Shown here one piece after another: positions 5,730 through 32,718 of a stretch of 64,000 nt of DNA (within the stretch, counting starts at the first letter, position 1; the number at the start of each line of letters is the position of its first letter). This stretch comes from Escherichia phage ECML-4. The DNA is taken from the sequence record JX128257; one strand, 5' to 3'. The notes beneath the pieces were generated by a model, which worked only from the letters and a program-made list of their open reading frames with translations, had not been told where the DNA came from and did not search any database. The position numbers were made by a program, and so were the translations under genes.

Positions 5730-5939
5730 TTTCCTTGGATGTCCAGGGGCAAAACAAGTTTGTTTGTCCCTGCATATCACCCATCCTTCCGAACGGGCTT
5801 GTCTAGCACAATCAGCCCAAGTTTCACCAGCATAAGACTTCATACCGCATCTTGGGTGGTGCTCTTGCCAAGCCCAATCACAAGATTTGCATTCCACGCA
5901 TTCACAATACAAATCTAATGTGTATCCTGCGGTAATCAT
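5721..5939 (-). CDS. small Cys-rich protein (possible zinc-binding)
   Basis: 72 aa with 8 Cys including CECVECKSC; fills the gap between neighbours. Confidence 0.3.
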   Translation of the reverse strand: MITAGYTLDLYCECVECKSCDWAWQEHHPRCGMKSYAGETWADCARQARSEGWVICRDKQTCFAPGHPRKSG

Positions 5940-6347
5940 TTAATCCGCCAGGCGTTCGTAAATTTTTTGACGGAACTCATTCCCTTTTGCACAACCTGTG
6001 GCCAGCAAACGAGTACCGCCTGTCCCGATGACACTGATCGTTGAAAATCTGAGAATACGGCCTGTAATGGACTGATCCACTTTGATGGTCTCAACTTTAC
6101 CCAGGCGAAGTTCATCAGCATCACGGCGGATAAACCCTCGTTTTACGATAACCCGTTTGTTGGTGACTGCGAATTCCGTGGTCATCACATTCAAGATAGT
6201 TGGGATCAGGAATAACAAACTGAAACCAAATGTTGGAATAATCGTTAAAGCGACGAGAACATAAATCCAGAATCCACTCCACCAAGTCGGACGAGTGAAT
6301 GCAACCACATATTCATTTTCGCTCAGCATACGGTCGACGTAACGCAT
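5940..6347 (-). CDS. membrane protein with bacterial PH-like domain
   Basis: 135 aa; two adjacent hydrophobic helices then a beta-rich domain (VTNKRVIVKRGFIRRD...LRLGKVETIKV). Confidence 0.4.
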   Translation of the reverse strand: MRYVDRMLSENEYVVAFTRPTWWSGFWIYVLVALTIIPTFGFSLLFLIPTILNVMTTEFAVTNKRVIVKRGFIRRDADELRLGKVETIKVDQSITGRILRFSTISVIGTGGTRLLATGCAKGNEFRQKIYERLAD

Positions 6348-6348
6348 T

Positions 6349-6870
6349 TTAATTCCTTACTTTGTCAGGATTAGATAAGATTTGTTCGTATCCGACTTCT
6401 CCTTGATAGTCGAAAACATGCTGAAGAATCGCCATATCTTCTACCATCCGATAAACTTCAATTCCAGCGTTCATCAATTTTTTGATTCCATCCATAATAC
6501 GATATGGCTCACGATAATATACTTTATCGATTTTACCGCTATCTATTATCTTTTGAGTGCAATTAGGGCAAGGACTATGTGTCACAAACATAACCAACCC
6601 TGTGAAATCATCTGCATTTTCGGGGATACGCATTAGAGCATTTTCCTCCGCATGAACGACACACGGGTTTGTAACAATTTGCCCGTGTTGTTCCATCTCA
6701 CAAACATTCGGCATGCCAGGAGGCGTTCCGTTCCATCCTATAGCCACAGGCTGATCAGTTTCAGGGTTTACAATAACACAACCGACTTGCAGACGCCGAG
6801 CATAACTGGTTACACCATATGCTGCAGCTGATCGCATATGAGCAAACATCATACGTGGTTTGATAGCCAT
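6349..6870 (-). CDS. cd: dCMP deaminase (cytidine/deoxycytidylate deaminase family)
   Basis: zinc-binding signatures CVVHAEENA (H-x-E) and HSPCPNC (PC-x2-C); 173 aa. Confidence 0.85.
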   Translation of the reverse strand: MAIKPRMMFAHMRSAAAYGVTSYARRLQVGCVIVNPETDQPVAIGWNGTPPGMPNVCEMEQHGQIVTNPCVVHAEENALMRIPENADDFTGLVMFVTHSPCPNCTQKIIDSGKIDKVYYREPYRIMDGIKKLMNAGIEVYRMVEDMAILQHVFDYQGEVGYEQILSNPDKVRN

Positions 6871-7274
6871 TATTCACCTCTCAGAAGACGAGCGAAGCGT
6901 TCAACAATGCGATTGCGCGGCTTCTCGGGAACGATGTCTTCTACCGTAATGGTCAGTGTGTAGTTTGTAGAAAAATCGCAATCGGACTTTGTGATGATTT
7001 TCCGTTCACCAGGCAGCGGATACATCGTTAAAGCCCTATCGACGGAATCTAGAGAAGAACCGACCAAGTCCACCACCCTTTGGTGCCCGAACGATAATGG
7101 ACCTACGACATCCTTTTCAAAAATTTCAATCACGTCGGTGACTAACACACCCAATGCAAGTCTTAGTCCAAGGTTCTGATTTTTATCCCCTAGTGTGTAC
7201 ACAAACTGCCGACGCCACAACTCTTTCCGGTCTTCAGAACGGACGAGAGAATAATTCAAATGGTATTGTTTCAT
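6870..7274 (-). CDS. hypothetical protein
   Basis: 134 aa ORF, 1-nt overlap with downstream gene. Confidence 0.4.
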   Translation of the reverse strand: MKQYHLNYSLVRSEDRKELWRRQFVYTLGDKNQNLGLRLALGVLVTDVIEIFEKDVVGPLSFGHQRVVDLVGSSLDSVDRALTMYPLPGERKIITKSDCDFSTNYTLTITVEDIVPEKPRNRIVERFARLLRGE

Positions 7275-9242: not shown

Positions 9243-9905
9243 CTATGATAACTCATAGCGATGGCGGGTACATGCAGGGCAATTACAGTCTTTTCTCAAA
9301 ATTGGCATTTCACACCACGTCATCAAACCATGTATTGGAGACATATGATGATAAAACCATGATTTTTTGAGACTAATCAAAGGATATAAAATTTCAATTG
9401 GCCTTTCCCCGTCTCTTGTCATCATATTGTATCCTTCGATGACCTTATTGAAAGCTGGGATCCAGTGGATCGCGTCGTCCCCGTTGACATATGCCAATAT
9501 GTATGTGGGAGGCAAACTCCGGCCTTTAAATTGTGTGTTTAATAACCATATCGGGGCTTGTGCTAAACACGCACGAAACCCGCCGTCCGGCACGTGAATG
9601 CTACTAATCGGTTCTTGGTGATGAGTCCAACGATGCATAAGAAGCGGAGCATTCTTGTTGATCCAATTATAAATTTTATTTCGCGCCCAATTCTCACGTT
9701 TGGATTTGAAATTATTATTTTCAAGATGGCAATACACAGTATGAACCGAATAACCTTTCGATAATAACCAAACCAACATGTATGTGCTATCCACGCCGCC
9801 TGACCAAAACAATGTCACTTCTTGATTATTTTCCGGCAAAGGTGCATCCCCTTGAAGGACACGGTACACAAATTCACAATCAGATACAGAGACAGCGATT
9901 TCCAT
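9243..9905 (-). CDS. PP-loop ATP pyrophosphatase, QueC-like
   Basis: SGGVDST PP-loop; C-terminal C-x8-C-x-C-x2-C cluster resembling the QueC zinc site; 220 aa. Confidence 0.5.
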   Translation of the reverse strand: MEIAVSVSDCEFVYRVLQGDAPLPENNQEVTLFWSGGVDSTYMLVWLLSKGYSVHTVYCHLENNNFKSKRENWARNKIYNWINKNAPLLMHRWTHHQEPISSIHVPDGGFRACLAQAPIWLLNTQFKGRSLPPTYILAYVNGDDAIHWIPAFNKVIEGYNMMTRDGERPIEILYPLISLKKSWFYHHMSPIHGLMTWCEMPILRKDCNCPACTRHRYELS

Positions 9906-10201
9906 TAAATTATTCCCCTCAAAGAGTCATTGATTCTACGCAATTCATTTTCCACCTTTATCTTCATATTTTTGTCGTCGTTCACGAAAATCATTTTATC
10001 TAAATCTTCGCCATTAATCTTTGTATAAAAATAAATGTCATGCTCAAAGAAAATCGTTTTTCCAACAGAACGCATGGCAAAGAATGTCGCAATAGTTCTC
10101 GATAATGGCTTGAACTTAATAGCATTAAAACGCAAAGCCTGATATAGGGGTTTTAATGTTCCCAATCTGATACAGTGCTGAATGATTTCTTGTTCTTTCA
10201 T
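9905..10201 (-). CDS. hypothetical protein
   Basis: 98 aa ORF. Confidence 0.35.
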   Translation of the reverse strand: MKEQEIIQHCIRLGTLKPLYQALRFNAIKFKPLSRTIATFFAMRSVGKTIFFEHDIYFYTKINGEDLDKMIFVNDDKNMKIKVENELRRINDSLRGII

Positions 10202-26995: not shown

Positions 26996-27421
26996 TTAGT
27001 CTTTGGATTCTACTTTATCACCACGCAGATCCTGGACGGGTTTGCCATCCGGCGACATGATGTAGATGGTGTTAATTGTTTCAAACCAAGACAGTTCATC
27101 AACTCCTTCAGTGTATGGAGTTACCGGAACTGAAGTTTTGATATGATCACCAACGTTATTTGGGGCACCATCAGACTTCAGCACTGGCTCCAGGAAGGCG
27201 AAACGACCATTTGGATAAATCACCCCGCCTTTGAACATGCGAATCTTCTTGCGAGGGTTGTTAGCCTCACCAAGACACACCACCAGATGATGAATCATCT
27301 CAGGGCGGGTGAGCAACGTGTCGTCACGGATGATCCCCTGTTTGATAGCAGAGATCACCACTTCATCCAACAAAGCCTGTTGCTGTTCCAGAGTCAAAGA
27401 TTCAGTAAGTTTCACGCTCAT
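26996..27421 (-). CDS. hypothetical protein
   Basis: 141 aa ORF. Confidence 0.4.
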   Translation of the reverse strand: MSVKLTESLTLEQQQALLDEVVISAIKQGIIRDDTLLTRPEMIHHLVVCLGEANNPRKKIRMFKGGVIYPNGRFAFLEPVLKSDGAPNNVGDHIKTSVPVTPYTEGVDELSWFETINTIYIMSPDGKPVQDLRGDKVESKD

Positions 27422-27424
27422 GGT

Positions 27425-27994
27425 CTAACCTTTGAAATTAATTGGGTTCTGAACCCCAGAGTCAAACGCGGCCTGGGTACGGGTATCGCTCACCACCTGA
27501 CAGGTCTTTTCGAGATCGATGCGAGGGTATCCAAAGATGCCAGCAATGACAGATCCAGGGAACTGGCCGAGTTTGGTTTCATAGATAGCACACGCATCTA
27601 ATTTCTTTGTCTGGCTGATACGGAATTCATCACGTCCTGAACTGATGACCACCTGAATTTCTTTGTACAGGCTTGAATCAAACTGGATGTTCTGTTCCTG
27701 GATCCATTGCATAACCGCCTTTGAACCATCAGCACCATAACGACCCTGGAAAGTATCTTTGATCACTTCTTTCAGACCGTCTTTGTACAGGCCAGGTATC
27801 TGAGCCGTCTCTTGTACTTTGTTTGTATAGTTGCTCAGATGGTTTTCAGAATCTTTATTGAACTTTTTGACTTGCTGTTCAATACGATTGAAATCATTGA
27901 AATAACTGACGAAACTACCAACACCGATTACAACAAAAGCCAGAATCGCCAAACCGATGATCCAACCAATTGAAATACCTTTACGCTGCGACAT
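27425..27994 (-). CDS. LemA family membrane protein
   Basis: N-terminal TM helix; C-terminal YETKLGQFPGSVIAGIFGY matches the LemA Y-N-x-FPGS-x2-A-x2-FGF signature. Confidence 0.6.
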   Translation of the reverse strand: MSQRKGISIGWIIGLAILAFVVIGVGSFVSYFNDFNRIEQQVKKFNKDSENHLSNYTNKVQETAQIPGLYKDGLKEVIKDTFQGRYGADGSKAVMQWIQEQNIQFDSSLYKEIQVVISSGRDEFRISQTKKLDACAIYETKLGQFPGSVIAGIFGYPRIDLEKTCQVVSDTRTQAAFDSGVQNPINFKG

Positions 27995-28009
27995 CTTTAC
28001 TTCCTCTTG

Positions 28010-29119
28010 TTAAAACAAACGTTTGTAAGTGCGACCATTGTACTGCATATGGCCTAATATGAAAATTGCGGTAAACGGAACACAACCTAATAAAACGACG
28101 ATAATCACTTCCCATGTCTTGAGGTCACGCCATTTCAGATACTCCATTTCCTTCATTTCAACACGGTTATAGCCTTTGCTGATATTGACTGCAACTTCTT
28201 GGAATACTGATATCCCCATGGGTTTGCCAGTCAATGAAAGACCGTTTCGGGAATGAAGTTCCATGTTATTCATCCCATCAGCAAATGACGTGGATTTACC
28301 CCAATTGATTTTCATATCCTTCGATATGTCAGTAACCACAATGACATCGTTCTTTTTACCACCAGACCATGCATATAGCAGCCCCTGAAAATATTCCACA
28401 GGCTGGCCAGAAGTCACTACCCACACGATATTGACCTGACGTGATGCCCCCAATGTTTTCAAAGTGTTGTTCAGATAATCATTCCAATAATCAACGGGAA
28501 TATCCATCCCTGACATATTCAGAACACGAGTCACCCGATAATAATCATACACCCTTGGATATGACGGGATATGGTCTTTGAACTTCTCAGCGAATTGTTG
28601 GTCAGATTTGGAGAATAAAGAATCCTTGTTCCCTAGAACATAGTTCATATATGCATGTTCACGCGCTGCAGGTTCTCCGATTTTAACTTGCGCCCAACGC
28701 GGGGGCTCTGTAGTACCCTGACGATCAATACGGTCAATGCTCAGATCACCGACGGATGTTAATACGTCCCAATCAACGTCATAAGAGTGCTCATAGCACG
28801 TGCTGCAATGACGCGTTTGTGTACAAGATCGGTTATTTCCTGAACCAGAGCAAGAAGTTGTGTAATAGCACATACATTCATAAGAATGGCTACAACCCAC
28901 CTTATTTCGTTGCTTGTCAGTAACGTATCCATTCAAAATTTCAACATCTCCCGAACTACCCAGGGAAAATGCAGCGTATGCTCCCGCCTGGATAAGACAG
29001 GATAATACAACCACTATCGCAGTAGCAATTAGCGTTTCTTTTGGTTCATGGGTTTTGCGATGGTAAACCACGAACAATATGGCTAAAATAATAGGGACCA
29101 CAAACAGAAGGTAAATCAT
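28010..29119 (-). CDS. membrane protein (two N-terminal TM helices, Cys-rich ectodomain, C-terminal TM)
   Basis: 369 aa; hydrophobic helices at both termini; Cys cluster (CSHSYECMCYYTTSCSG...CTQTRHCSTC). Confidence 0.45.
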   Translation of the reverse strand: MIYLLFVVPIILAILFVVYHRKTHEPKETLIATAIVVVLSCLIQAGAYAAFSLGSSGDVEILNGYVTDKQRNKVGCSHSYECMCYYTTSCSGSGNNRSCTQTRHCSTCYEHSYDVDWDVLTSVGDLSIDRIDRQGTTEPPRWAQVKIGEPAAREHAYMNYVLGNKDSLFSKSDQQFAEKFKDHIPSYPRVYDYYRVTRVLNMSGMDIPVDYWNDYLNNTLKTLGASRQVNIVWVVTSGQPVEYFQGLLYAWSGGKKNDVIVVTDISKDMKINWGKSTSFADGMNNMELHSRNGLSLTGKPMGISVFQEVAVNISKGYNRVEMKEMEYLKWRDLKTWEVIIVVLLGCVPFTAIFILGHMQYNGRTYKRLF

Positions 29120-29502
29120 AACACACCATCCACGAGTTGTTCCTTCGTCATACCAAGAAGTTGATTTTTATGACCTGATTCAGCTCCATTTTTCAACAAC
29201 AGATCCCAACGTTCTTCATGATACTGTGGAGTCATTGCATCGTCAAAAGAAACATGGTGGCGATGCATAATTGTTGCAACGGTATGAAGAACGATTGCTG
29301 TCGCTCTTTTTAAAGCACGTGTATCAGTGATATGGTCTTCATATTCAATACCCATCAAATCGAGTTCTTTCCGAATATATGCAATAGACAAATCACCTTC
29401 AGAATGCAATTTAACAATAGTCGCTTTCTTAGGATGTAACACGCCGTCTGTTTCTTTCATGAACAGATCGTACAAATATTGTTTGTATTCGGGGCGCATC
29501 AT
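29116..29502 (-). CDS. hypothetical protein
   Basis: 128 aa ORF, 4-nt overlaps. Confidence 0.4.
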   Translation of the reverse strand: MMRPEYKQYLYDLFMKETDGVLHPKKATIVKLHSEGDLSIAYIRKELDLMGIEYEDHITDTRALKRATAIVLHTVATIMHRHHVSFDDAMTPQYHEERWDLLLKNGAESGHKNQLLGMTKEQLVDGVL

Positions 29503-30025: not shown

Positions 30026-31261
30026 TCATCGTTTCAACAAAGACATGAGGTTTACACTGGTCGACTTCGGATTGTCATCTATCTTCCGGACGGGCATTTT
30101 CAGATTAGTGTAAACCTCAGATGGTTCCCAACGCGTACCCTGCTGCAGGTGCCAAATATGAAGAGGAACACCCGTCTCAAAGAACACAGGCATCTTCCAC
30201 TTCTGGACGCCAGGAACGTGCCCTGCAGGAGCTTTTTCGCATAACAAGGTATCTGGTAGCCAGAGGGAACGGGCTTCCCATAATGCCTTACAGGAGTACT
30301 CAGGCCAGATGCGTTCCATGTAGTCGATCTCATCCCAAGTACGCTCAGCATCCCACCCGATGTAACGAGTGTTTTTCAGACGGAAGAATTTCTTAAGCCA
30401 ACAAGCACCGGAAGTCTCAAAGTTCAAACGATTGATGAACGTGATGTGACCAAACTCGGCGACACAATCTTTGAATGCCTGTTCAAGATCAGCCTCAAGG
30501 ATGTCGCATTCTTCATCGGTGATAGGACAGCCGTTGATCTTTTTCTTTCCGTGCTTGGTCACCCAGTCGTCACGGTTTGACAAGAATGCCGCGCCGTTGC
30601 GGTTGGACTCACTACCATCACGGTCACGCAACATGAACCCAGGGACGTCGATCTGATACATGTTGCCGAATACCATGTTCAGGGCTTCCAGGAAGTTCCA
30701 GGCGCTCAGGCGACCGAAGTATTTCCATCCCATAGCCGTGTCCCATAGCTTAACGAATTGATCACTTTGCAGTTTAGTCTCCAACAACGGACGGAAAGCA
30801 TCCATCTGAGTACGACCAGCTAGCCAATCAATGTAGGACTGAACACACGGGATCATCTTCGATTTGCGATAGCGGCAATCAGTATCGAATCGCATACGCT
30901 CGAAGTTCAGGTTATACCAATCACAGAATCGCTTGAACTCTTGTGGTGACTGAGGCGGTACAGGAAACTCACTATAAATCGTCCATGGGCCAATCCCATT
31001 ATAACAACAGCCCCAAAGGAACGCCATCCAGATCTTGCGCTCGATCTTCTCAAGCTGTGTAATGCCTTCAGTGACTTCAATCGCATAATCCATCAGACGA
31101 ACTTGTTGGTTGTGTTCTTCCGTATACGACAGCGCCTCCACCCATGCTTTGAGCAGATACATCCGATTCTCTGGCTTACGATAATCGATTGACAAATCAA
31201 TTGGGTACTTCCATTCAGCCGGAGGCGTATAACCTGTCGGCATTTTAGATAGATGCGTCAT
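30026..31261 (-). CDS. hypothetical enzyme-sized protein (candidate DNA-modification enzyme)
   Basis: 411 aa, Trp/Cys-rich, no motif recognised; lies beside the P-loop kinase and HAD genes. Confidence 0.3.
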   Translation of the reverse strand: MTHLSKMPTGYTPPAEWKYPIDLSIDYRKPENRMYLLKAWVEALSYTEEHNQQVRLMDYAIEVTEGITQLEKIERKIWMAFLWGCCYNGIGPWTIYSEFPVPPQSPQEFKRFCDWYNLNFERMRFDTDCRYRKSKMIPCVQSYIDWLAGRTQMDAFRPLLETKLQSDQFVKLWDTAMGWKYFGRLSAWNFLEALNMVFGNMYQIDVPGFMLRDRDGSESNRNGAAFLSNRDDWVTKHGKKKINGCPITDEECDILEADLEQAFKDCVAEFGHITFINRLNFETSGACWLKKFFRLKNTRYIGWDAERTWDEIDYMERIWPEYSCKALWEARSLWLPDTLLCEKAPAGHVPGVQKWKMPVFFETGVPLHIWHLQQGTRWEPSEVYTNLKMPVRKIDDNPKSTSVNLMSLLKR

Positions 31262-31803: not shown

Positions 31804-32718
31804 CTACGCCTTACGCATTAGCCCCAGAAGGGACACGGATGAGGTCTTTGGTTCTTCCTTGGCGACGGCCTTGTTTTTAGTTTTGGATGCCTTCTGCGGC
31901 TTCTCAGGCACTCTGTGAGCCAAAGGATCCTGACCGCCGACTTCACGCGTCATCGGATTGGTTTCGCAATAGCCGTAGAAGTCTTTCGACATCAGATTGT
32001 TAGCGCGGCAAACTGTGCCAAGCTGATGATAGATAGCATTACCCACCACCCACAACGGGGCGTCGAACGGCAACATAGCCAATTCGCTATCATTCCCAGT
32101 CTTGAATTCTTGGGTGTTCGTAGCCGTTTGGTGGTACAAAACGTCTTGCCCACTGTAATCATCCACGGCAACATTCCAGCCAAGCGCCAGCATTTCAGCC
32201 TTGGACTTCTCGAACTCCTTGGAGTAAGATTCGTTGCGCGACCAGCCGGAATCCCCCGCTTCTTTACCAGAGCGTCCACGGATGCGGGCATCGTACTGAT
32301 AGCGGTCTGGATATGCAAAGTACAGCAGCGCCAAAGAATCAATCGGATAGTTCTTGAACATCCATTCAGGACGCCACTTGTCCGACAGCATCAGGGGTTC
32401 GCCCTCACACACCAGGGTATATCCCTGAGCCAGCCAACCCTTGACGAGGTCGCGAGCAATATCCCCAGAGCCTGTGGCAGCATGAATGGCGTCCATAGAG
32501 GTCCAAGACGCCAGGCCGGATTTATTGGACACTGTGTATTGGCCGACGAAGATTAACTTCAGCTCTTCAAATTTCAGGCCGAAGGGGCGCGTCTTATCCC
32601 CAACAGTGTACGACAATTCAGTCGGCTTCAGCTTAGTGCGGAGCCACTCGATGAACTGTACGACACGAGTGCCTTTACCCGTGCCGCTGGTTCCTTTGAT
32701 TACGATGATCTTTGCCAT
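31804..32718 (-). CDS. P-loop nucleotide kinase-like protein
   Basis: N-terminal IVIKGTSGTGKGT, an NMP-kinase-style G-x-G-K-G-T P-loop; 304 aa. Confidence 0.5.
   Translation of the reverse strand: MAKIIVIKGTSGTGKGTRVVQFIEWLRTKLKPTELSYTVGDKTRPFGLKFEELKLIFVGQYTVSNKSGLASWTSMDAIHAATGSGDIARDLVKGWLAQGYTLVCEGEPLMLSDKWRPEWMFKNYPIDSLALLYFAYPDRYQYDARIRGRSGKEAGDSGWSRNESYSKEFEKSKAEMLALGWNVAVDDYSGQDVLYHQTATNTQEFKTGNDSELAMLPFDAPLWVVGNAIYHQLGTVCRANNLMSKDFYGYCETNPMTREVGGQDPLAHRVPEKPQKASKTKNKAVAKEEPKTSSVSLLGLMRKA

Follow-up and report, generated by a model that had tools for sequence, protein, structure and literature searches.

LemA and TPM-domain proteins occur widely among bacteria. For TPM domains a chaperone-like function when membrane complexes are assembled or repaired has been proposed, e.g. 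in photosystem II repair and for YdjH, the partner of PspA, and metal binding and phosphatase activity are debated within the family (PMC11237479; bioRxiv 10.1101/2024.10.28.620569). LemA-like domains, according to one description, are bundles of four helices, the first one long, and serve as membrane scaffolds or remodellers (bioRxiv 10.64898/2026.07.15.738315). The genes for both kinds of protein can be direct neighbours: among six bacterial lemA loci that we examined, four have a TPM_phosphatase gene directly adjacent, downstream of lemA in L008 (E 2.3e-40), L121 and L122 and upstream of it in L123. This confirms the existence of the LemA pairs that were named as bacterial envelope modules in an earlier note on the DNA studied here, a stretch of 64,000 nucleotides (nt) from Escherichia phage ECML-4 (record JX128257; hereafter the window, to which all coordinates refer). 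The subject of the present work is a pair of adjacent genes in this window, A (the upstream member) and B (the downstream member). Because a TPM gene adjoins lemA in these bacterial loci, we interpret the pair as a probable rearranged, phage-specific version of the bacterial LemA/TPM envelope pair. A and B very probably work together as a TPM-like and a LemA-like membrane protein that face the periplasm.

The gene pair

Both genes lie on the minus strand:

28010..29119, minus strand: gene A, ortholog of Vi01_203, 369 amino acids (aa), inner-membrane protein with three transmembrane helices and a large periplasmic domain, as predicted (open reading frame (ORF); phrog_2087, E 8e-166; AlphaFold2 (AF2) model)
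27425..27994, minus strand: gene B, ortholog of Vi01_204, 189 aa, type II membrane protein with a LemA-like helical domain (ORF; phrog_1383, E 3e-85; AF2 model)
28000..28006, minus strand: Shine-Dalgarno sequence GAGGAAG of gene B, 5 nt before its ATG (read from the sequence)

The region shares ~99% identity with vB-SalM-SJ2 and Vi01, two Salmonella phages (Kuttervirus, Ackermannviridae); A corresponds to Vi01_203 and B to Vi01_204 of the latter, and the closest homologs of A are 99% identical. Judging from the PHROG family matches and hundreds of homologs, A and B are real genes. The ATG of A shares letters with the stop codon of the ORF upstream of it (ATGA), and 15 nt separate A from B. The two genes had been called translationally adjacent; they are indeed adjacent and co-oriented, but they neither overlap nor are coupled, since B has its own ribosome-binding site.

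Relationship of gene B to LemA

A profile of 34 B-family sequences searched against the PDB has 2ETD, a 'lemA protein', as its top match (E 6.6e-4, in two co-linear stretches). In profile-profile comparison by hhalign, the B family reached a probability of 69.5% against the C-terminal halves of genuine LemA proteins and of 95.5% (E 1.4e-8, 135 columns) against a LemA set including two full-length bacterial ORFs; these were taken from loci, as the LemA homolog search, seeded with a 63-aa fragment, gave truncated LemA only. The alignment pairs B residues 27-161 with LemA residues 20-175, i.e. from just past the transmembrane helix to the FPG...GF motif. The reciprocal test gave the same picture: a hidden Markov model (HMM) built from bacterial LemA only and run against all ORFs of at least 80 aa from 118 loci picked up 17 ORFs besides 3 true LemA genes, and every one of these 17 was the gene immediately downstream of A. 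When the B family was scanned member by member against Pfam, LemA was the most recurrent family (sub-threshold in 4/34, best E 0.0016). A few LemA labels already exist, as one B homolog in UniRef is named 'LemA family protein' and the GenBank entries of phages Guerrero and Ecwhy_1 have the name 'LemA'.

The AF2 model of B (mean predicted local distance difference test score (pLDDT) 77.5) consists of helices 9-63, 68-84, 89-100 and 107-143, the first of which is much longer than the others. Thus B matches the architecture of LemA, which has ~190 aa, one N-terminal transmembrane helix and then a bundle of helices, the first of them long. The parts of B concerned are:

27512..27916, minus strand: LemA-like domain of B, residues 27-161 (hhalign; PDB 2ETD; reciprocal LemA HMM)
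27527..27562, minus strand: FPGSVIAGIFGY motif, residues 145-156 (F145-Y156), counterpart of LemA FPxxxxAxxFGF (profile alignments)

The 'FPGS...FG' signature from which a LemA-type protein had been proposed is thus present at residues 145-156. This C-terminal motif, Y...FPGxxxAGxFGY, is kept in B of ECML-4, and many family members have FWKG; the LemA motifs ENYP(xLK) and GTENRI are shrunk to single conserved residues in the B family. On these comparisons we place B in the LemA superfamily, as a genuine member that has diverged very far. The LemA-type call therefore stands at superfamily level, given the hhalign result and the first rank of 2ETD in both the sequence-profile and the fold searches, but not at the level of the Pfam family PF04011, which B does not match. 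A weak PADLOC match of B to LeoBC, over the transmembrane and coiled region, was set aside as compositional. Besides this match, Pfam, NCBIfam and PADLOC scans of A and B gave nothing usable, and the NCBIfam scan of B gave nothing at all.

Architecture of gene A

The AF2 model of A (pLDDT 87.6, predicted TM-score (pTM) 0.76) comprises, in this order, two N-terminal transmembrane helices, a beta-rich hairpin domain, an alpha/beta domain and a C-terminal transmembrane helix. The earlier note had described the partner of the LemA-type protein as a 369-aa protein with two N-terminal transmembrane helices, a Cys-rich ectodomain and a C-terminal transmembrane helix. This is correct according to the ORF, the hydropathy and seven conserved cysteines, but the TPM-like domain had been missed. 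The parts of the ectodomain are:

28535..28951, minus strand: beta-rich Cys/His domain of A, residues 57-195, with long beta-hairpins (model strands 57-74, 79-91, 98-109, 114-121 and 150-158)
28172..28525, minus strand: TPM-like alpha/beta domain of A, residues 199-316 (AF2 model; Foldseek; BFVD; sub-threshold PF04536)
28346..28363, minus strand: GGKKND motif, residues 253-258, invariant (alignment columns G253, K255, N257 and D258 invariant)

Residues 199-316 are modelled with pLDDT around 90 in the order beta-alpha-beta-alpha-beta-beta-alpha-alpha, which agrees with the published definition of the TPM fold as a four-stranded central beta-sheet with four flanking helices (bioRxiv 10.1101/2024.10.28.620569). 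Searching the PDB with the model of A by Foldseek, we found 9H70 (LMTP1, a PF04536 TPM protein according to the same study) as the top match, with probability 0.97 and E 6.9e-3, and the TPM protein Psb32 (8C7I) at rank 17. In the BFVD database of viral structures, rank 2 was a full-length match to a myovirus protein (E 1e-21, TM-scores 0.59/0.68) that is named 'TPM domain-containing protein' in UniProt. The sequence signals point the same way. TPM_phosphatase (PF04536) is the sole Pfam family that recurs among A members (10/36, 12-18 bits, best E 1.8e-4), always at ~residues 207-263, corresponding to profile positions 11-74, and it is the top match of the A-family consensus (20.5 bits, E 5.2e-4; cut-off 22.1 bits). 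Furthermore, the W-x-G-G-K-K-N-D motif of A aligns with W-G-I-G-D-K-E-K-N-N-G of bacterial TPM proteins. From the modelled fold and these consistent sub-threshold signals, the C-terminal ectodomain of A appears to be TPM-like, which would make the phage pair a true counterpart of the bacterial LemA pairs.

The consensus of the beta/Cys domain matched nothing in Pfam, and we consider it a new domain outside the Pfam families. Matches of A to FliF ring domains and to the anthrax PA and CDTb pores in Foldseek had probabilities <0.25 and are probably due to the long beta-hairpins; a search of PDB sequences with the A-family profile gave only a chance match to ferritin.

Predicted topology and conserved cysteines

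The following membrane segments and cysteines were assigned:

29063..29119, minus strand: transmembrane helix 1 of A, residues 1-19 (Kyte-Doolittle window score 2.9; model helix 4-21)
28979..29035, minus strand: transmembrane helix 2 of A, residues 29-47, preceded by a short basic loop predicted to be cytoplasmic (hydropathy 2.16; family charge)
28052..28108, minus strand: transmembrane helix 3 of A, residues 338-356, followed by a basic cytoplasmic tail (hydropathy 2.79; charge of the family C-tail)
27905..27976, minus strand: transmembrane anchor of B, ~residues 7-30 (hydropathy segment 7-25), N-terminus predicted inside (hydropathy 2.67; flank charge)
28796..28894, minus strand: cysteine cluster of A, C76, C82, C84, C90, C99, C105 and C108, with conserved H78 and H111 (family alignment, covariation)

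Charge is distributed unevenly around these helices. In the A family the net charge is +0.64 in the loop between the first two helices and +2.2 in the C-terminal tail, and the edges of the large domain carry -1.5 (after the second helix) and -1.3; in the B family the N-terminal flank (+1.4) is more positive than the segment past the helix (-0.6), with the N-flank being the more positive one in 31/34 members. All seven cysteines within residues 76-108 of A are conserved in the family, C76 and C82 being invariant. C84 and C105 are both present in 30 members and both absent in 6, C90 and C99 are both present in 34 and both absent in 2, and in neither case does one cysteine of a pair occur singly. 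The residue numbers of each pair sum to 189, as for cross-strand neighbours in the predicted hairpin. Likewise, C135 and C165 of B are found together in 20 members, are both missing in 14 and never occur alone. Such covariation suggests that the pairs form disulfide bonds, and the disulfide pattern would therefore place ectodomains of both A and B in the periplasm. Together with the charge bias it suggests that the large domains of both proteins are periplasmic; the TPM-like domain of A, which is bracketed by its second and third helices, would accordingly be extracytoplasmic and anchored to the membrane. The topology and the periplasmic disulfides are thus predictions, and by hydropathy, charge bias and cysteine covariation they support the membrane location of both proteins that had been assumed before.

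Pairing and distribution

We surveyed 114 loci containing A, of which 110 are informative and four run off the end of a contig. In 101 of the 110, B lies directly downstream of A on the same strand, with a median gap of 25 nt. In the others B follows A after a small insertion (4), lies directly upstream (1) or is absent (4), so that B is found within 1.4 kb of A in 106/110. Past the A homologs of GAP32, of Xanthomonas phage BUDD and of a metagenomic phage, the next gene is a B homolog as well (hhalign 99.95-100%), and the remaining neighbours of the pair differ between these phages. Near-equal numbers of GenBank phage records contain A (485) and B (496), with matching genus tallies. In one case, P0332 (L125 1012-2673, 553 aa), A reads through in frame into B. 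This is a singleton on a 9.5-kb metagenomic contig that keeps the Shine-Dalgarno sequence and ATG of B inside the ORF, hence it may be a real fusion or a lost stop codon, and its support for cooperation of A and B is weak. It is the pairing in 101/110 loci, the near-equal phage counts, the differing flanking genes and this one read-through that support the view that A and B work together.

Carriers are found among Ackermannviridae, Rak2/GAP32-like jumbo phages, Erwinia RAY-like phages, Vibrio phages ICP1, JSF10 and KIT04, Acinetobacter phages, Aeromonas phages including the T4-like phiAS5, Sinorhizobium phage phiM12 and Agrobacterium phage Atu_ph07; all of them are large lytic phages of Gram-negative hosts. 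An exhaustive profile search gave 2,117 A clusters at 50% identity with a very uniform length. Among 185,579 species-representative genomes, a scan that depends on exact sequence patterns found 30 A loci, mostly on contigs of metagenome-assembled genomes. Like the homologies and the domain architecture described above, the strict gene pairing and the phage-borne distribution are shown by the analysis.

This distribution bears on a possible role in superinfection exclusion, which, next to envelope remodelling, had been suggested for the pair and in which A and B would block DNA entry or cell-wall attack by later phages, as Imm and Sp of T4 do. Exclusion proteins are usually small, fast-evolving and confined to narrow lineages. 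The A/B pair, however, is strongly conserved (the A family has >20 invariant residues), spans phages of hosts from Vibrio to Sinorhizobium and Xanthomonas and is derived from a widespread cellular module; moreover, the close relative Mutine already has an annotated exclusion protein, similar to gp17 of P22 (PMC6509533). Even though the predicted inner-membrane, periplasm-facing topology and the position in a non-structural block near rIIA/rIIB would suit exclusion, we consider this role unlikely. The very broad and strongly conserved distribution fits a housekeeping-type role in the envelope better than a fast-evolving exclusion function.

Some further loci deserve mention. L107, L113 and L114 (GC 0.71-0.75) as well as L102 have an A-like gene without a detectable B in a bacterial-looking context, i.e. 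on high-GC contigs or with housekeeping genes downstream, and these genes may be remnants or relatives of A from cells. L097, a contig that was binned as Candidatus Kaiserbacteria, holds A and B and, ~2.4 kb further downstream, also a canonical LemA gene (PF04011 E 4e-63; coordinates 5921-6976 and 9390-9971). In the Cronobacter phage GAP32 (L003 1717-2865) a gene of the TelA family (PF05816), of membrane-stress type, lies two genes upstream of A and B. In 15 records of Prevotella Lak megaphages (e.g. MK250020 and MK250017) there are B-like matches over residues 60-186 with 31-34% identity, and A was not detected in Lak phage records by tblastn at E 1e-5. Finally, the 111-kb GenBank record OR844942.1, 'Enterococcus phage Efm 3-10', contains A and B with 97% and 92% identity to this Kuttervirus and is probably mislabelled or contaminated.

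Genomic setting and existing annotations

The pair is part of a minus-strand block that also holds genes for DNA polymerase, thymidine hypermodification (the amino acid:DNA transferase (ADDT) and the 5-hydroxymethyldeoxyuridine (5-hmdU) DNA kinase), rIIA/rIIB and topoisomerase II; the other strand carries the genes for baseplate and tail spikes, from ~48.2 kb. Just upstream of the pair are the transferase (30026-31261, minus strand; PF18724, E 3e-58) and the kinase (31804-32718, minus strand; PF18747, E 6e-169). These are the thymidine hypermodification genes of ViI type, and the kinase is called 'guanylate kinase' in older records. The ORFs that directly flank the pair, 26996-27421 and 29116-29502 (both minus strand), belong to phrog_4236 and phrog_5047, both of unassigned function; they are conserved in Ackermannviridae and do not accompany A and B in distant phages. 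An antisense ORF of 152 aa (27143-27601, plus strand), which covers the 3' end of B as well as the first part of the next gene, is probably spurious.

B of Vi01 (Vi01_204) is labelled 'virion structural protein', a label that many other records and phrog_1383 carry as well. If it were right, B would be a true virion component, carried in the particle and brought to the host envelope upon infection, possibly along with A. The source of the Vi01 labels is particle proteomics, in which 41 particle-associated proteins were reported (Pickard 2010, as described in PMC3184105). In LIMEstone1, on the other hand, the orthologs of A and B, ORF194 and ORF195, are not among the 39 virion proteins, even though that proteome includes non-structural carry-over such as rIIB, DNA ligase, PhoH and gp44 (PMC3296691). 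The position of the pair outside the structural block and on the opposite strand, within the replication and rII block, also argues against a virion role, as do the transmembrane anchor of B and its covarying cysteine pair, which points to folding in the periplasm. The single detection would be explained if an abundant membrane protein had been carried over in vesicles. Altogether we find a virion role very improbable and the label doubtful.

A second label, 'host lysis protein', is attached to A in the Vi01 record (product 'conserved uncharacterised protein'), and lysis and apparent lysis inhibition have been observed in Vi01-like phages (PMC3184105; PMC6509533), for which A and/or B might be the component that is missing, a holin, an antiholin or an i-spanin-like protein. 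Like the holin T and the antiholin RI of T4, A and B are membrane proteins whose periplasmic domains are large. In its type II topology B resembles an i-spanin or T4 T, and a few members of the A family weakly match Pfam holin families over the transmembrane region. But A, with 369 aa and a periplasmic domain of ~280 aa, is unlike typical holins, and B is a homolog of the LemA helical bundle and not an extended coiled coil. The pair has no endolysin gene next to it and lies among genes of replication type. We also looked for an o-spanin following or embedded in B, and the ORFs at the two places, 26996-27421 and 27598-27738, have neither a signal sequence nor a lipobox, so that the lipoprotein partner of a spanin is absent there. 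In addition, the pair occurs in T4-like Aeromonas phages such as phiAS5, and T4-like Aeromonas phages carry T4-type lysis genes. A role in lysis or its timing is therefore distinctly unlikely in our view, and the label of A, for which we found no basis, is probably wrong.

Proposed function

We propose that A and B form a two-protein inner-membrane module that is produced in the infected cell. B would be held by one N-terminal transmembrane anchor and expose its LemA-like helical bundle to the periplasm, and A would pass the membrane three times and present the disulfide-stapled beta domain and the TPM-like domain on the periplasmic side. We infer that the two proteins bind each other. Their complex might be a scaffold or chaperone at the membrane and serve to maintain or remodel the inner membrane or envelope complexes of the host during the long infection cycle of large lytic phages; this role is suggested because of the analogy with the literature proposals for TPM and LemA-like domains. 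Taken as a whole, this is the best explanation we can offer, and we stop just short of calling it probable; the specific envelope-maintenance or scaffold role, which comes from that analogy, is put forward somewhat more tentatively.

Several findings weigh against this proposal. At the level of sequence, PF04011 did not match B at E<=1 or the B-family consensus at E<=10, and genuine LemA ORFs scored E 1e-59 and 4e-63 in the same test; similarly, A of ECML-4 has no match to PF04536 at E<=1, being below the gathering threshold. The hhalign comparison of the A family gave a probability of 0.2% against one bacterial TPM sequence and a non-significant 3% (E 0.014) against a very thin profile of three, although in the latter the expected region was paired (A residues 212-256, with WSGGKK against WGIGDK). 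For the model of B, 2ETD ranked first of ~350,000 chains in Foldseek with a weak score (E 0.25, probability 0.57, TM-scores 0.31/0.37). Regarding expression, promoter and terminator scans at the locus were no better than with shuffled sequence, and the presumed timing of expression comes from the gene neighbourhood. Our literature searches gave no paper in which LemA or TPM is linked to these phages and none with experiments on the function of A or B; B is reported as particle-associated in Vi01, second-hand through PMC3184105, and none of the phages CBA120, ViI and Mutine has a reliably identified holin or spanin (PMC3184105; PMC6509533), a gap that also speaks for a lysis role of the pair.

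A more daring extension of our proposal would be that A oligomerises via its long disulfide-stapled beta-hairpins into a periplasmic ring and that B acts as a LemA-type membrane remodeller, the two forming a dedicated device that builds or reshapes an inner-membrane structure. We regard this as a long shot. If true, such a device could, for instance, stabilise the envelope and the membrane potential up to lysis or give order to phage processes at the membrane, and its study in a tractable phage would reveal the function of the ubiquitous bacterial LemA/TPM module.

The proteins themselves are of an ordinary kind, i.e. membrane proteins of a known superfamily; what is new is their architecture, the phage-wide fixation as a pair and the previously unrecognised TPM-like partner. 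A diverged and rearranged LemA/TPM pair has thus been fixed as a two-gene unit across a very large set of big lytic phages, including candidates for therapy and biocontrol (Kuttervirus, Limestonevirus, ICP1). The pair is a target for annotation, with the 'virion structural protein' and 'host lysis protein' labels probably being wrong, and offers a genetically simple system for learning the membrane role of LemA/TPM modules.

Comparison with known systems

With Imm and Sp (superinfection exclusion) and T and RI (holin and antiholin) of T4, A and B share that they are phage proteins of the inner membrane or periplasm acting, as we propose, on the envelope; no sequence or fold similarity to these proteins was detected, and size, conservation pattern and evolutionary origin differ. 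Closer in structure are TLP18.3, Psb32 and LMTP1 of the thylakoid lumen and YdjH of Bacillus subtilis, which have the same alpha/beta fold as the model of A, at marginal sequence similarity. The membrane at which these proteins sit is an energy-transducing one, and they are on its extracytoplasmic or lumenal side, as predicted for A, and LMTP1 has a disulfide, likewise predicted for A. In contrast to them, A has no photosystem context, and its partner is LemA-like, whereas YdjH partners PspA. The model of B, in turn, resembles a LemA-like protein of Magnetospirillum and the mycobacterial ML0451c (bioRxiv 10.64898/2026.07.15.738315) in having a bundle with a long first helix beside a membrane; B differs in that it is predicted to face the periplasm and is paired with a TPM-like protein.

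The closest system is the bacterial pair of LemA (PF04011; TM0961 of T. maritima, PDB 2ETD) and a TPM-domain protein (PF04536). Compared with it, the phage genes are arranged with the TPM-like member first, whereas lemA comes first in three of the four bacterial examples, and both phage proteins are below the Pfam thresholds, with most LemA signature residues only partly retained. Unlike the bacterial TPM partners, A of the phage has an N-terminal hairpin of two transmembrane helices and a beta domain that is predicted to be stapled by disulfides, and it is without the Gly-rich C-terminal tail that is present in those partners. What the two systems share is more basic: B (189 aa) and the bacterial LemA of L008 (193 aa) both consist of an N-terminal transmembrane helix and a LemA helical domain, the bacterial lemA-adjacent partner and A are both membrane-anchored, with a TPM domain in the one and a TPM-like domain in the other, and the two-gene logic is the same.

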